DNA from: Candidatus Nanohaloarchaea archaeon
GTDB lineage: Archaea > Nanohalarchaeota > Nanosalinia > Nanosalinales > Nanosalinaceae
Direction: 5' to 3'
Assembly: GCA_042217585.1 (NCBI GenBank)
Contig: JBDGSJ010000021.1
Coordinates: forward strand, 1-36,852
Length of the DNA: 36,852 nt
Shown: positions 15,001-27,000 of the stretch, in pieces
Layout of the letters: each line of letters opens with the position of its first letter
Position numbering within the stretch: position 1 is the first letter of the stretch
Program-made: the position numbers

Positions 15001-18000
15001 GAGCCCTGCCTGAACCAGGTCCGAAACTGATCTCTCGGAGGTACTCTGGTCCGCTGTCGCCGGTCCTGTAGACCAGAGTCGCCTGTTCCGTGAAGCTTGA
15101 TGAAGAGGCATGAACGTACAGTTTCCCGTCGTGAAGGACCGGGTCCTTGTAATGAGTGAAACCTGTATCGAATCGAAGTCTCCGGGCTTCAGAGGGCTGG
15201 AAACCGGAGATACTGGATGAGGTCATCTTCATTATCTCCCAGCGACCGCTGGAACCGTTCTGGTAGCTCAGGTAAAGCACGTAACCCCCGTCCCTCTTTC
15301 CGATCGCCGCTCCCTCTATCGATAGCGCCCCTATCTCCTCTTTATGTACGGTCCAGATGGTCTCCATCCGGGAACCCAGCTGTATGATGGACCCCCTGAA
15401 ACCTCTCCTCTCCGGTCCCCGGGACCGGGTGTACAGGTAGATACCCTCACCTCTGACAGCCAGGGATGAAGGGCTTCCCACCCAGTTCCCGGTCCCGCCC
15501 CTGGCTGACCTCAGGCGGACCGCCCTCTCAGGATCGAAGAACGGGTTCGCCGCCTCAACCCTATCAGTGAACGCGCCGTATAGGACCCTTCCCGCCGCCC
15601 TCACCCGTGTCTCCACCTGGTTCCTGAATCCGTTGAACCCTGTGCTGTAAAGGCGATCAGATACCTCGCCAAGGACCTCCCACGGACCGACCCCTGCGAG
15701 CGAGACACCTGAGAGAACCACGGAAAGGACCAGGAGAGCACTCAGACCTTTTCTCAATATTATAGGACCTCCGTAACTCTCTATAGCCTTTTAATCTTTT
15801 CAGTTTGAGGTCCGGTGGCGATCTGGATCGACAGCCAGGTGATATCTCCGGGACCTGAATAGCCGTGTTAACTTTTAATACAGGCGCCGGTTTAATTTGT
15901 AAACAGTGATGGATCCGGGAGAGGTATCTGATCACACAGTGAAGGAAGTGAAGGAGAAGGTAAAAGGCGGAGATATCAGCGCTGAAGCGGCGCTGGATGC
16001 CGAGAGGTCTGGCAAGGAACGGAAAACGCTCACAGGATGGCTTGAAAAAAGGGCTGAAGACGGAGAAACAGTTTCACAAGAACAGGAGGATTCAGATACT
16101 ATGGACGATTCAAAGAAGGAAAAGATGAGGGAAAAAGCGGAGGAAATCGAGTCATCGATCGAAGAAGTAACCTCGTCTTTCGAAACACTTTCATCCGTCT
16201 CCTCACAGATGGCGGAGAGAAGCGAGAAGCAGGCAGAAAACCTGGATGAACTTAAGTCAGGTATAAACGAGATATCAGCTTCTGCAGAGCAGATAGCGAA
16301 CAACTCGGAGGACGCCGCCGACTCAATATCCAACATAAACAGGTTCTCCCAGCAGGCAGGCCAGTCAGCCGAGGAAGGGATGAGCAAGATGGAGGAGATG
16401 GAAGAGACAGTCTCCGAGGCCCGGAGCTCGGTTGAGGAATTGACGGAGAAAAGCAAGAACATAAGGGAGATAACGAAGACTATAAACGATATCGCGGAGA
16501 AGACCGACCTCCTGGCACTGAACGCCTCCATCGAGGCCGCAAGGGCCGGTGAGCAGGGACGCGGATTCGCCGTCGTCGCCGACGAGGTCAAGCAGCTCGC
16601 GGAGAACACCTCGAACTCCACAGAGGACATATCGAACATGGTCGAGGACATGGAGAACAGCATAGACGACGTGAGCGAGAAGATCGGCCAGACCGAGGAT
16701 ATACTGGAGAACAGCTCGGGCGTTATCAGGTCAGCTCTAACGGCTCTCGAGGAGATATCCGACGAGATATCCAACCTTTCCTCCGAGATGCAGGAGATAT
16801 CCGCCGCGGCCCAGCAGCAGTCCTCCAGCACCATGGACATCGGGGAGACCGCCGAACAGGTCTCTTCAGCCGCAGAAGAGCTCTCAGCAGGCATACAGGA
16901 GGTCACATCCACCGTCGAGGAGGAAAGCACCAAGATAGAGAAAGTCGAAGAAGACATCAAGGAGACGCGTGAAATCCTTGAGGACACGTAGAGGCGTGTA
17001 AAAAATGCAAGGAGAGGAGGAAGAAGAATCGCTGGCCGATACCACCCAGATATTCGTGTTTGAACTGGCCGGGGAGGAGTACGCGCTGGAGATAGAGAGA
17101 GCCAAGGAAGTTATCAAGGCCGACGAGAAGAAGATAAACCCTGTTCCCAACGTACCAGACTACATACGCGGGATAACGAACATCAGGGGCCAGGTAGTCC
17201 CTGTGATAGATCTAGAACCGCGTTTCGACCTGAAAGAGAACGAGAGCAAGTTTATAGTCGTGATAGAGGTGAACGATGCCAGCGCGGGTATGCTGGTGGA
17301 TGATGTCAAGGAAGTCCTGGACGTGAAGAAGGACCGTATAAAGGATTCTCCGTCGATACTGGAGGAGGAGATACACGCGGACTACATAAAGGGAGTCGCG
17401 GTCCTTGATGAGCGCCTGATAATCATACTGGATCTCGAGAACGGACTCGGCGAGGAGGAAGCGATGAAGATAAATGAGATAGGGGAGAAGATGGGAGAGG
17501 ACGAAGACGAGGAGGATGAAGAGGAACTGACCCAGGAAGAGATACGGAAAAAGGCCAAGGAAAGAGTTAAGGAGAGCTGATCACTCCATATCCAGCACGT
17601 CCTTGATGGTGGCCTTGACATCATCGTTCTCGAAGGGCTTCTCGACGAACTCCTCGGCGCCCAGATCCATCGCCTCGTCGACCATCTCCTGCTGACCGAC
17701 TGCCGAAATCATTATGACCGTGGCGTCGCTCTCCATCTCCTTTATCTGCTTGAGGGCCTCTATCCCTCCCATCTCCTCCATGACGATGTCCAGGAGGACT
17801 ATGTCCGGTCTGCTGTCCCTGTACTTCTCGACTGCCTGCTCGCCGTTCTCCGCTTCCTTTATCTCGTCGAAGCCGAGGTCCTCCAGGATGTTGACCAGTA
17901 TCTTCCTCATGAAGGAGGAGTCTTCAGTTACGAGTGCTTTCATTCTTCCTCACCCAGTATTTCCTCAATTTTAGGTATAAGCTTTTCCTTGGTTATCGGC

Positions 18001-24000: not shown

Positions 24001-27000
24001 AGATAGGCTCGGTACTCCAGAGGACGCAGAGACAGATGATCACGGGCGGAATCCTCGCCGTGGTCCTGGCAGGAATCGTCGGCTTCTACGTCTCACGCAG
24101 GATAACATCGCCGATTGAGGAACTCACCGAGGAAGCGAACGAGATAGCGAGAGGTAATTTCGTGGACGTCGACGTTGACACGGACGACGAAGTCGGGGAA
24201 CTCGCTGACGCTATCAGAGGCATGGTCAAGAGCCTCAAGCAGATGGCCGGAGAGGAAAGCGGGTCCGAATGACCACCACGCCGCACAGATTCCTTTTTTT
24301 ATTATTTTATGAAAAACCTCTATATTGGACTTTTCTGGCACTCCAGAGGATTTTTAAATAGCAAAGCGGTCAATCTTGCTCACAGGAAAATGGTTCTCTA
24401 CAGGGATGTTATAGAGGCGGCGATAGACAAGTTTGTGGACGTTCAGGGCGAAAAAGCGAAGGACGTGGCTGGTGGTATAGAGGGACTGGAGGTCAGGGAC
24501 GACGGTAGCGTGACAAAGATAAACGGCAACAAGAAGGAGATATTCAACGAACTCCTGGACGAATACGTCGAGATGGGAGGACCGGTGGCCACGCTCCTCA
24601 TAAAGAACGGTGTCGAGGACCAGACGGGCAAATCCACGGAGGAGATCGCCACGGAACTGGATCTGCCGGAGAGATTACTCTAGATCACCAGACCTCAGAT
24701 CCTCCTTGAACTCCTCTCTCAATCCGTCATCTGCCACATCCACGTCCATTCGATATCCCTGGCCCCTTTCCTCTATCCTTGCGGAGAAATCCTCGGAGTC
24801 AAAGTAGTATGGATTGAACCTTAACATAACGAGGGAGTAAATCTTTTCCTCGACCTTGCGGAAGGATTTCAGGGCGCTGGCGGCCAGCGGCCTGATGAGG
24901 CCTCTCGAGGCCTCCCGGACCTCGTCCGATGGCTTCTCCATCCTTTTGACCTTCTCACCTGCCTCCCTGGCTTTCCTGCCTGCATCCTCGATGTCCTTCC
25001 GGACACCATCGCTTTCCTCCTCCACCTCGTTCGGGTCCAGCTTGGCCTCCTCGACCGTTTTTTCCCTTACATCGGCCTCCGACCCCTCCTCTCTCGGACG
25101 CCACTCCTCGTACTTCTGTATCTTGTCATCATCGACTCCGGATTCCTCAAAACTCCTCTGGACCTTCCGCGCGAAATCAGCTATATCCTTCCAGCTCCCC
25201 CTCATGCTGACCCCGGAGTTGGTCTCCTCGGGACCGTCTCCCATAAGACCTAAAGGACACTGGCGGGCATATAAAAGGTCACCTGTCGCCGAGGATCCTG
25301 AGACACTCCTCGAAGACCTCTTCGACGGTCCCTGAGGCATCCACCATCTCTATATCTTCCTCCAGCCTCTCTCCGAGTTCCCTGTAGCTGACAGCGACCT
25401 TCTCCTGGAAATCCAGGTCCTCGAATATATTGCCGTCCTCTCCGCGGTCCCTGACCCTTCTCATGCCCGTCCTGGCCCTCACATTGAGAAAGACAGTGAT
25501 GTCCGGCTTTATCGCCTCCGAGTTGAGTTCCCTGACCCAGTCTCTTTCAGCGCCGAGAAGAGGCTGGTAGACAAGGCTGGAGTGGTAATACCTGTCGCAG
25601 ACCACCGTCTCCCCGTCCCTGAGCCGGGGCAGGATCTCCTCCTCAAGGTGGACCATCCGGTCAGCGGCGAAAGCCAGGGCTATCGACTCCGCGGAGCTCT
25701 CCCCCTCTGATATCATCTTATCTACTTTCCGGCCTATCTCGCCAGAAGTGGGCTCGGCGGTCCAGTACGCATCAAGTTCCTCTGCAGTCCTCCTCGACTG
25801 CGTTGTCGTTCCGGAGCCGTCCGGACCCTCGAAAACGATGAAACGGCCGGGAAACTCTTCCTCTCTCACACGGATGTTTTCGCCCCGAACTTCATATCAG
25901 TTTGTGAGCGCATCCCATATCTGCCAGAGATATACCAGGGGCAGGATAACAGGTGCGAGAGGACCCAGCAGAGCTATACCTATACCCAGGGAGCTACCTG
26001 CGATAGCCCAGACTATCACGGCCTTCAGGAGGTCCCGGTTGAGCAGCTGGCCGAGACCGGGGATAATCGCCGACGCTATAGCTGCTATCACACCCATAGA
26101 TGAGGTGTGGAGTTCGCAGGACTTAATTCCTTCCCCGGCGAAAGATTATTGGCTCGGGTCCACGAAACCTTGGTCATGAGGAACAGGGACCTGGAAGACG
26201 CGGACCCTGAAGTCCATGAAGCCCTCAAAAAAGAGGTGGAGAGGCAGGAGAGCGAGTCCCTCGAGATGATAGCCTCCGAGAACTTCGTCCCGAGACAGGT
26301 GCTCCAGGCGCAGGGCTCAGTCCTGACGAACAAGTACGCCGAGGGCTACCCCGGCAACCGTTACTACGCGGGCTGCGAGCACCACGACACGGTGGAGGAG
26401 CTGGCGAGGGAGCGGGCCTGCGAGATATTCGACGCGGACCACGCCAACGTCCAGCCCCACTCGGGCTCACAGGCGAACTTCGCCGCCTACTTCTCGGTGC
26501 TTGAAGCCGGAGACAGGGTGCTGGGACCGGTCCTGAGCCACGGAGGACATCTGACGCACGGCCACCACGTGAACTTCTCGGGCGAGCTTTTCGACTTCGA
26601 CACTTACTCCATCGACAGGGAGACCGGGAGGTTCGAGCGCGGGGAGATCATCGAGGCGGCGGAGGAACACGACCCGGAGATGATAGTCTGCGGGTACTCC
26701 GCCTATCCCCGGGAGATAGATTTCTCTGCTTTCCGGGAGGCGGCGGACCGCGTCGACGCATACCTGATGTGCGACATAGCCCACATCTCGGGTCTCGTCG
26801 CCGCGGGCGAACACCCCTCTCCGTTTCCCGAGTGCGATATAGTGACCACGACCACCCACAAGTCGATACGGGGTGCGAGAGGCGGGATGATAATGTGCCG
26901 GGAGGAACTGGCTGACGACGTGGACAGCGCGGTCTTCCCGTTCACGCAGGGAGGACCCCTGATGCACCAGATCGCGGGCAAGGCAGTCTGCTTCGGCGAG

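Follow-up and report, generated by a model that had tools for sequence, protein, structure and literature searches.

What does a chemosensory pathway control in an archaeon without a recognisable archaellum? The question is raised by a nanohaloarchaeal genome of the family Nanosalinaceae (GCA_042217585.1), in which a stretch of 36,852 nucleotides (contig JBDGSJ010000021.1, hereafter the window) carries a contiguous che cluster at 15909-24272, composed of genes for a soluble MCP, CheW, two CheY, two CheC, CheD, CheA, CheB and a membrane dCache-HAMP protein. We estimate at about 50% the probability that it encodes a functional chemosensory pathway of F1 descent (archaeal/Firmicute type), with a two-piece receptor and a target other than a CheF-coupled archaellum.

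Gene content and distribution of the che cluster

The gene content announced in a preliminary description of this DNA was recovered by Pfam scans, each gene lying at the coordinates given here. On the forward strand, the sensor-less MCP (15909-16991, within an ORF open from 15906) counts 360 aa from its ATG and matches MCPsignal at 7.9e-45; it is followed by CheW (17005-17580; Pfam CheW, 9e-33). CheY1 (17581-17943; Response_reg, 3.1e-29) and CheY2 (17940-18305; Response_reg, 2.7e-24) are encoded on the reverse strand. The ORF of CheY2 extends up to 18467, but its receiver occupies residues 59-167 of this long form and its orthologues measure 117-127 aa, so that translation likely starts at the internal Met at 18305, giving 121 aa. 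A first CheC-like phosphatase lies on the forward strand (18474-19079; Pfam CheC, 2.2e-9; NCBIfam CheC, 80 bits, below cut-off), and the reverse strand then encodes CheD, a receptor deamidase and CheC partner (19076-19540; Pfam CheD, 4.9e-24), a second, CheC/CheX-like phosphatase (19540-20178; Pfam CheX, 1.1e-7, and CheC, 2.1e-6; NCBIfam CheC, 121 bits), CheA (20168-21748; Hpt, dimerisation domain, ATPase and CheW-like P5) and CheB (21755-22738; CheB_methylest, 1.3e-50; Response_reg weak, 38 bits). The membrane sensor closes the cluster on the forward strand (22902-24272; dCache_1, MCP-like_PDC_1, and HAMP at 397-447 of 456 residues), and the gap of 118 bases reported after it holds, the next conserved ORF starting at 24390.

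At the level of conserved motifs, every catalytic part of the pathway is intact. CheA keeps His45 of its Hpt domain and its ATP-binding boxes, CheY1 the phospho-acceptor Asp, Ser/Thr and Lys, CheY2 likewise Asp, Ser and Lys, and CheD its catalytic Cys and His, while each CheC retains one intact site and the Ser-His-Asp esterase/deamidase triad of CheB is complete in an alignment to CheB 1a2o. Neither CheY carries a fused output domain. Two oddities accompany these intact sites. The P2 domain is absent from CheA in Pfam scans, as in about 35 of its closest relatives (no PF07194; 512-535 aa), and the acceptor Asp of the CheB receiver is replaced by Gly, a change found in 6/6 aligned nanohaloarchaeal CheB. 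The closest CheA outside the clade belong to Negativicutes and Methanolobus (about 40-43% identity), and the best solved relatives of CheY1 are the CheY of Thermotoga and Pyrococcus. All NCBIfam equivalog cut-offs are missed (CheA 437 vs 950, CheY 116 vs 200), the best models being haloarchaeal CheA and CheY and Thermotogales CheC. The F1 class of Halobacterium, Bacillus subtilis and Thermotoga maritima shares CheA, CheW, CheY, CheB, CheC, CheD and MCP with this cluster, which differs by its P2-less CheA, dead CheB receiver, two CheY, receptor in two proteins, and lack of CheF, archaellum and, in this family, CheR.

The cluster lies in a region of lower G+C (0.526-0.545 over 16-24 kb vs 0.57-0.61 in the flanks), together with an amino-acid permease, a glycoside-hydrolase-like propeller protein and a small multi-copy ORF. 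The interval between the AspRS and SHMT genes measures 20.8 kb here vs about 10.4 kb in a closed relative, with DUF5828 on the same edge; this relative is che-less, as previously noted. The segment 13141-24683 is therefore a probable inserted island. The contig itself is not stray, since its housekeeping genes are 77-80% identical to those of family genomes.

Among 70 species genomes of the phylum, eight of them single-contig, the same gene set was found in nine, distributed over three families and five genera. These nine are related rather than independent, and all are draft MAGs (completeness 71-92%; none closed). Their nine genes follow a similar order, with protein identities of 31-73% and the tandem CheY pair in 9/9 loci; such conservation of order and sequence across three families argues for selection and not for decay. 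CheA, full or split by contig ends, occurs in 3/49 other family genomes, in agreement with the earlier count, to which a weak match of 23 bits in one more genome may be added; in the phylum it occurs in 8/69 other genomes and not in six. The novelty claimed for Nanosalinaceae stands in part: the portion of a 2022 survey that deals with its 14 genomes of the family reports no che genes (PMC9765267), but NCBI records already list CheA in Ca. Nanohalobium MAGs.

Absence of recognisable archaellum genes, CheF and CheR

Six-frame searches of the whole genome repeated the absences reported before: no match to CheF, CheR or archaellin at E<=10, and none to ArlD/E, while the CheF, archaellin and ArlD/E profiles score in Haloferax and methanogens. 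In none of the 70 phylum genomes does a CheF, archaellin or ArlD/E match attain its Pfam cut-off, so that the missing 10% or so of this genome does not explain these absences, contrary to the fear that archaellum genes and cheF might lie in the unassembled part. A single gene would go unseen across the nine che genomes with a probability of about 2e-8, assuming independent misses. Sub-threshold archaellin-like matches of 15-28 bits (maximum 28.2; cut-off 29.5) are present in 26/70 genomes, three of which carry che, this genome not being among them. The equivalog cut-offs for ArlH (46-50 bits vs 215), ArlI (408 vs 550) and ArlJ (105 vs 550) are also unreached here. As for CheR, its lack in this genome does not extend to all relatives: it adjoins CheB in one sister family and is absent from the other two families.

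Almost all archaea with che have CheF, usually inside the che operon, according to the relevant part of 'Taxis in archaea' (PMC7289035). Judged from gene content, the components that couple archaeal Che to swimming (CheF, ArlCDE, archaellins) are missing from the pathway; also missing are CheR, in this genome, the CheA P2 domain and the CheB phospho-acceptor. These results support the view that the pathway is uncoupled from any recognisable archaellum.

Soluble MCP and membrane sensor

The soluble MCP contains MCPsignal at residues 152-321 of the 361-residue ORF, with no HAMP in Pfam scans and no hydrophobic segment in a Kyte-Doolittle scan. The whole-genome six-frame search yielded only this MCPsignal gene. 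Orthologues of 338-366 aa exist in six other che genomes. The N-terminus is predicted to form a conserved four-helix domain of about 50 residues (model pLDDT 81.5), lacking a Pfam match or any clear structural relative, and the signalling hairpin holds candidate deamidation/methylation sites, such as a 10-residue pattern at residue 298. The dCache-HAMP protein comprises TM1 (3-32), a periplasmic dCache, TM2 (377-402) and HAMP, has no MCPsignal in Pfam scans and ends nine residues past HAMP, with a T-rich stretch downstream; homologues from three other genomes (G009, G010, G011) end in the same place. Output-less proteins represent 13 of its 22 nearest database relatives that were scanned, taken from the best 150 listed, and among those scanned the nearest output-bearing ones carry SpoIIE, HisKA or GAF, not MCP. 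For this reason, we ruled out that the protein is a broken MCP.

The comparative pattern supports a two-piece receptor formed by this putative pair. HAMP is present in 9/9 che genomes vs 1/61 others, the exception being a che-less genome (81% complete) whose HAMP ORF lies where a contig begins. Full-length dCache-HAMP homologues are confined to che genomes (G009, G010, G011 and G019; 0/61 others). Output-less TM-HAMP proteins accompany the soluble MCP in 7/7 genomes (five dCache-HAMP, one HAMP-PAS, one HAMP only), and the 2/2 che genomes without it encode a fused sensor-HAMP-MCP that is devoid of the N-terminal four-helix domain. Comparison thus supports the two-piece receptor proposed earlier, with a putative binding of the pair.

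Other systems separate detection from MCP signalling. In haloarchaea, sensory rhodopsins pair with HtrI/HtrII, and BasT/CosT depend on binding proteins; these transducers themselves keep membrane helices and HAMP, whereas in the present pair the sensor carries both TM and HAMP and the MCP is entirely soluble, an arrangement for which the literature searches, aimed at questions other than split receptors, gave no described case. Cytoplasmic sensor-less chemoreceptors of class IV, such as the soluble receptors of Thermotoga, similarly have almost nothing besides the signalling hairpin, without TM or HAMP, but the nanohaloarchaeal MCP differs by its N-terminal four-helix domain and its co-occurrence with output-less TM-HAMP sensors. 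It is nevertheless quite possible, if less favoured, that the dCache-HAMP protein is unconnected to Che, the soluble MCP sensing a cytoplasmic cue alone and the HAMP-only sensors using another partner. Soluble receptors that lack a sensor domain form an established class, and the pertinent section of one study counts 44% of archaeal MCPs as cytoplasmic (PMC9680633). Databases also contain many output-less dCache-HAMP proteins from well outside this phylum, their output-bearing relatives being phosphatases and kinases, not MCPs. Moreover, the two genes lie at non-adjacent loci outside this genome, and in sister families the dCache-HAMP gene adjoins an HD-domain gene, not che. Against this weigh the tracking of che by HAMP, the complementarity with fused receptors, and the apparent scarcity in these genomes of other signalling proteins that could act as partner.

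Possible output of the pathway

The pilus-type loci reported on contigs C1, C5, C6 and C11 were confirmed. C5 groups an ArlI-like ATPase, two PilC/ArlJ-like halves and three class III signal-peptide matches; the best NCBIfam model of the ATPase is ArlI/FlaI, aligned nearly end to end. The two filament ATPases checked are encoded in 61/70 and 70/70 genomes, independently of che, and this distribution is uninformative on che because such machines are near-universal in the phylum with or without it. No pilus gene adjoins any of the nine che loci. Hence, of the earlier proposal that Che is wired to something other than an archaellum, the lack of a recognisable archaellum link stands, but a type IV pilus as output is plausible only. 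Chemosensory systems steering type IV pili are exemplified by Pil-Chp of Pseudomonas and Tax/Pix of Synechocystis, whose CheA are hybrids with receivers and several Hpt and whose genes lie among pil genes. The nanohaloarchaeal cluster resembles them in having a Che-type pathway, two CheY-like regulators and type IV as the only recognisable filament machines, and differs by its minimal CheA and the lack of pilus genes nearby; this likeness is one of proposed working, not of descent.

Some could argue that the ArlI/ArlJ-like machines are strongly diverged rotating archaella, with Che steering swimming through an adaptor outside the CheF models. The C5 ATPase and the archaellin-like matches just under cut-off favour this reading, as do the long 'archaella-like' stalks and annotated FlaG/FlaI/FlaJ operons of Ca. 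Nanohalobium constans in the microscopy and annotation passages of two reports (PMC7443923, PMC10266531). We consider it unlikely: the accessory parts fall under cut-offs, ArlD/E and CheF are missing phylum-wide, this genome has no archaellin-like match even at E<=10, and the stalk-bearing cultured strain apparently belongs to a che-less lineage, a link made through a closed genome that shares its genus with the MAGs named Nanohalobium and has no CheA. Equally improbable in our opinion is control of a process other than movement (an 'alternative cellular function'), for example uptake, attachment or the fusion of symbiont and host cells, with CheY-P acting on another protein. Systems of this ACF type are reported in 31 archaea (PMC13747009), no che locus here includes a motility partner, and the decoupling of CheB from CheA feedback with the loss of CheR in two families would weaken the fast adaptation that gradient swimming needs; on the contrary, CheC, CheD, the single-domain CheYs free of output domains and the closest relatives of CheA all match the F1 class, which is linked to motility. 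An assembly artefact or a dying transfer relic is suggested by a genome 89.7% complete in 38 contigs and by the inserted look of the low-G+C island, but is very improbable given absences common to all 70 genomes, single-contig ones included, nine open and catalytically intact genes kept in three families, and a contig that matches its family.

In the favoured reading of a working F1-derived pathway, the membrane protein would bind an extracellular ligand through its dCache domain, and its HAMP would relay the signal non-covalently to the soluble MCP, possibly docking on its N-terminal four-helix domain. The MCP and CheW would then control CheA, leading to phosphorylation of CheY1 and CheY2. 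Adaptation in this family would have to proceed without methylation, through CheD/CheC/CheY-P feedback, with CheD and an unregulated CheB deamidating conserved Gln pairs. The cluster may spread as a gene island among a subset of Nanohaloarchaeota. The pseudo-receiver CheB, the P2-less CheA, the restriction of CheR to one sister family, the tracking of che by HAMP and the complementarity of soluble MCP and fused receptors are new. CheY-P would act on something other than a CheF-coupled archaellum; as its target we tentatively put first the ArlI/ArlJ-like type IV filament machine of C5 with its pilins, the least certain step, by which the symbiont would find or hold its host.

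Gene content and conserved residues of the cluster

The genome under study (0.98 Mb in 38 contigs, 89.7% complete) harbors ten chemosensory genes at 15.9-24.3 kb of the window, itself one entire contig (C14), as assigned by Pfam scans of the ORFs. They encode a soluble MCP of 360/361 aa (15909-16991, + strand) whose sole domain is MCPsignal (residues 152-321), a CheW, two single-domain receivers forming a CheY pair, a CheC-like protein, a CheD, a CheC/CheX-like protein, a CheA of 526 aa, a CheB and, on the opposite strand after a gap of 163 bases, a dCache-HAMP protein of 456 aa (22902-24272, +) with dCache_1, MCP-like_PDC_1 and HAMP (397-447). 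CheC and CheD, both components of the F1 class, are present. For the second CheY, the Met at 18305 is the most likely start, given that its orthologues measure 117-127 aa. On one side the cluster is flanked by AspRS, SMC, ScpA/B and NFACT and on the other by thymidylate kinase, SHMT, ThyA and DHFR (Pfam). The AspRS shares 77-80% identity with its counterparts in four members of the family and 64% with that of one sister-family genome, and the contig therefore belongs to this organism. The set of genes given in the preliminary description was borne out by these scans and widened by a search of 70 species genomes of the phylum. No RNA run was listed as containing the window sequence, and the two full matches were DNA runs from a salt-lake metagenome, which may be its source.

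Catalytic residues were read directly from the translations. CheA comprises the domains P1, P3, P4 and P5 (Hpt, H-kinase_dim for dimerisation, HATPase_c as the ATPase, and the CheW-like domain in Pfam) and keeps the phospho-His context (His45) as well as the N, G1 and G2 boxes. In the two CheY, acceptor Asp, Ser and Lys are retained, as are the Cys and His of CheD and, in CheB, the Ser of GxSTGG, the His of QHM and the Asp of GMGxDG. One of two sites is intact in each CheC-like protein, scored against the CheC site consensus. The MCP presents the consensus modification sites, including an invariant Gln triplet. Judged from these residues, the proteins of the cluster look functional, and several of them look unorthodox.

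The CheB receiver has a Gly at the acceptor position where Salmonella CheB (1a2o) has Asp56, and in the alignment the conserved Lys is missing as well, along with the acidic pair; by its residues, this receiver is dead, and the same losses are seen in all six nanohaloarchaeal CheB aligned. No CheR was matched in the genome at E<=10, and the F1-class methylation pair of CheR and a phospho-regulated CheB was not found there. CheA has no match to the CheY-binding P2 domain (PF07194), its P1-P3 gap spanning only about 54 residues (Pfam). Its approximately 35 closest database relatives are likewise P2-less proteins of 512-535 aa, some of them entered at NCBI as MAGs of Ca. Nanohalobium or Nanohaloarchaea, and the next relatives (about 40-43% identity) bear P2 and come from Negativicutes and Methanolobus. 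Haloarchaeal names are absent from the best 120 CheA relatives.

Distribution and history in the phylum

Full or contig-split CheA genes occur in 9 of the 70 species genomes: four belong to the family of the genome under study (itself included), three to a second family and two to a third. The window MCP, CheW, two CheY, two CheC, CheD, CheA and CheB recur across these three families with 31-73% identity in tblastn against the eight other che loci, and gene order is largely kept. The che cluster is a lineage feature and not a one-off. Beyond these nine genomes, G053 yields one weak CheA match (23 bits), and G013 and G051 hold MCPsignal fragments and no CheA. CheR exceeds the cut-off in two of the nine, both in the second family, where it directly adjoins CheB, and in none of the four che genomes of the first family and neither of the two of the third. 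A survey of 2022 lists cheAWCDBY for two other nanohaloarchaeal families and for none of 14 Nanosalinaceae (PMC9765267), and another survey describes DPANN as lacking a chemotaxis system (PMC9680633). Judging by the Nanohalobium names, the first family would correspond to the Nanosalinaceae of GTDB.

Some loci present local variations. In the third family (G019 and G020), the che locus contains a gene for a GmrSD-type restriction endonuclease that separates the receptor side from CheA (L041 6059-7426 and L042 3127-4491), and a search with the window CheB as query detected no CheB in either locus. G041 encodes, beside CheB, a second soluble MCP, 442 aa long (L036 = G041:C33, 8879-10207), followed by hydrogenase genes; it occupies the position held by the dCache-HAMP gene in the genome under study and by CheR in the sister family.

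The che region has a G+C content of 0.53-0.55 vs 0.57-0.61 in its flanks. G052, a closed relative without che that carries DUF5828 at the same edge, has an AspRS-SHMT interval shorter by about 10 kb. Within one genus, a closed genome without che is found along with two MAGs having two different cluster types. All nanohaloarchaeal CheA form one clade with a support of 100 in a quick, midpoint-rooted tree, in which CheA of the first family fall in two places with those of another family between them, and the clade stands beside CheA of Methanolobus and Negativicutes. From composition, distribution and tree together, we read the cluster as an island that is mobile among nanohaloarchaea and that was not acquired recently from their haloarchaeal hosts. 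A related-locus search with CheA among genome contigs retrieved only seven distant proteobacterial loci, of no help for its origin or context.

Three further observations concern this region and its CheA. The stretch that separates the conserved flank from the che genes (window 13141-15757) encodes an amino-acid permease, which has a match in only one of five closed relatives, and a protein of 359 aa grouped by ESM Atlas with five-bladed glycoside-hydrolase/sialidase-like propellers; the two genes apparently belong to the same inserted island. Metagenome contigs encode another set of CheA without P2 (P0188, P0190, P0191, P0193 and P0195; 524-535 aa), which branches apart from the nanohaloarchaeal clade and closer to CheA of Methanolobus and Negativicutes. 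The SHMT match in the closed relatives G046, G052 and G039 is reported with one in-frame TGA, which may only reflect an upstream extension of the frame.

A proposed receptor in two pieces

The preliminary description had proposed that the soluble MCP and the dCache-HAMP protein together form one receptor. The former, which shows no hydrophobic segment, is the sole MCPsignal gene of the genome. The latter has hydrophobic segments at 3-32 and 377-402 and no MCP signalling domain (PF00015; Pfam); its reading frame comes to a stop nine residues beyond HAMP, with a T-rich stretch and then an unrelated ORF next to it. Such a frame could be the remnant of a broken MCP, an explanation that we rejected given the architecture of its relatives. 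Among the 22 nearest scanned of 150 listed, 13 share a recurrent output-less build, in some cases with a zinc ribbon added at the N-terminus; the window protein conforms to this build (TM1, dCache_1, TM2, HAMP and an end within about 10-25 residues). The output-bearing relatives carry SpoIIE, HisKA or GAF. Within the phylum, the dCache part is matched at E<=1e-34 only in G009, G010, G011 and G019, all of them che genomes; the homologues measure 478-481 aa and have an identical end point, and the same output-less build is found in G009, G010 and G011.

HAMP exceeds the family cut-off in all nine che genomes (in G036 at protein level) vs one of the 61 others, G034, where it lies at a contig start. 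All seven genomes with a sensor-less soluble MCP also encode TM-sensor-HAMP proteins devoid of an MCP domain. In five genomes these are dCache-HAMP proteins; G020 has HAMP-PAS, and G041 a HAMP protein of 308 aa. G036 and G040, which have no soluble MCP, each encode a fused TM-sensor-HAMP-MCP. This pattern, which spans five genera and not nine independent events, amounts to Rosetta-stone-type evidence for a functional link between the HAMP protein and the MCP.

The soluble MCPs have in common an N-terminal domain of about 50 residues, modelled as four helices (pLDDT 81.5), which the fused receptors do not possess. It has no Pfam match at E<=10 and no Foldseek match in the PDB at E<=0.001, and its best VIA-align hit (Z 6.1) is among generic helical repeats. 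A complex prediction, run without controls, of an MCP dimer with a dimer of the HAMP tail (392-456) scored 0.00, with the partner poorly folded, and weighs neither for nor against binding. Taken together, the two-piece reading is plausibly right. Apart from this, the HAMP-only membrane protein of G041 adjoins an extracellular SBP_bac_1 solute-binding protein (L124/L127 = G041:C12, ORFs 1351-2277 and 2317-3162), which hints at sensing via a binding protein.

Output of the pathway and its significance

Archaeal chemotaxis is tied to the archaellum via CheF and ArlCDE, according to the sections concerned of PMC7289035 and PMC13705601 and to PMC13747009; one of these describes CheF as usually encoded within the che operon (PMC7289035), a type IV filament census of 2026 ties ArlCDE to CheF (PMC13705601), and another 2026 study found F1 systems coupled to archaella and ACF-type systems in 31 archaea (PMC13747009). 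CheF (PF04283) and archaellin (PF01917) have no match at E<=10 in the genome under study, and neither these nor the ArlC/D/E switch complex (PF04659; top score 17 bits) exceed the cut-off in any of the 70 genomes. The controls for the CheF, archaellin and ArlD/E searches all ring in Haloferax and methanogens, with CheF matched in Haloferax, Methanocaldococcus and Methanosarcina. In the genome under study, the three filament ATPases score 408, 310 and 142 bits against the ArlI equivalog of NCBIfam (cut-off 550), ArlJ reaches at most 105 bits (cut-off 550), and three tandem KaiC-like proteins reach 46-50 bits against ArlH (cut-off 215). The latter are single-domain ATPases encoded in a row at G000:C22:4883-7215, nearer to KaiC models than to ArlH, with a small-GTPase-domain protein adjoining.

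The missing genes might simply lie in unassembled parts of the genomes. The che genomes are 71-92% complete, and the chance of missing one gene in all nine would be about 2e-8 if misses are independent; in addition, 8 of the 70 genomes are single contigs. The pathway is thus, as first described, not coupled to any recognisable archaellum. A flat statement that no archaellum exists is however opposed by sub-threshold archaellin-like matches in 26 of the 70 genomes (15-28 bits, maximum 28.2 vs a cut-off of 29.5), by class III signal-peptide matches adjoining the C5 filament ATPase, and by published stalks, since the relevant passages on cultured relatives report "archaella-like" stalks in micrographs and annotated FlaG, FlaI and FlaJ (PMC7443923, PMC10266531).

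A type IV pilus had been put forward as the output, which is so far unproven. The tandem CheY pair resembles bacterial pilus-steering chemosensory systems; those systems, however, use a hybrid CheA, and the window CheA is not hybrid. The Tfp chemosensory class is characterised by a hybrid CheA with a receiver and several Hpt, and by genes beside pil genes; the window CheA has a single Hpt and no receiver (Pfam), and no pilus genes are found in the nine che loci. Every genome thus offers filament machines as targets, and nothing marks out one of them.

None of four candidates profiled over the 70 genomes was found to co-vary with che. As che partners, we discarded the C5 ATPase (present in 70/70 genomes), the C11 ATPase (best E<=1e-100 in 61/70), DUF5828 (in 43/70, and a conserved flank gene in the che-less G052) and the small ORF at 24390-24683 (+), which belongs to a multi-copy family found in 18/70 genomes. 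This ORF encodes an acidic protein of 97 aa without Pfam match and has six copies in the genome under study. Its family, with up to six copies in other che genomes and a member between CheB and CheR in G009, occurs in all nine che genomes and in nine without full CheA; it is enriched in che genomes and not specific to them. The ORF at 14678-15757, which adjoins the MCP gene, was dismissed as a CheF stand-in because it is absent from other che loci; in the ESM Atlas it resembles a glycoside-hydrolase propeller. The C11 ATPase itself (G000:C11:15315-17570; 751 aa, filament-type) shows 76-83% identity across most of the family's genomes, and in about a dozen genomes its match is split (1-493 and 488-751) within open frames of 1125-2013 aa, a picture suggestive of an intein or some other large insert within the ATPase domain.

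We tentatively propose, with a probability of roughly one in four, that the che pathway would be self-contained and would steer a type IV filament machine with which the symbiont finds or grips its haloarchaeal host, and that it would be fed by a naturally split receptor whose membrane sensor-HAMP part docks on the soluble MCP via the private N-terminal domain of the latter. By title and abstract, we found no paper on a Che system without archaellum in nanohaloarchaea or DPANN, nor one on a receptor split after HAMP, these searches being aimed at nanohaloarchaeal and DPANN chemotaxis, pili and archaella and not at split receptors; the main text of the 2022 survey makes no mention of archaella, flagella, motility or pili (PMC9765267). 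If the proposal is true, no earlier archaeal Che pathway would have had an output other than the archaellum, and no earlier receptor would have been divided between HAMP and the signalling bundle. A sensor-HAMP protein and an MCP encoded separately would be a natural system to study how HAMP transfers its signal to the kinase-control bundle. More generally, an intact and conserved Che pathway in obligate nano-sized symbionts without archaellum parts raises the questions of what phosphorylated CheY targets and how these cells find their hosts, and both are testable, as nanohaloarchaeal lineages can be enriched and co-cultured.
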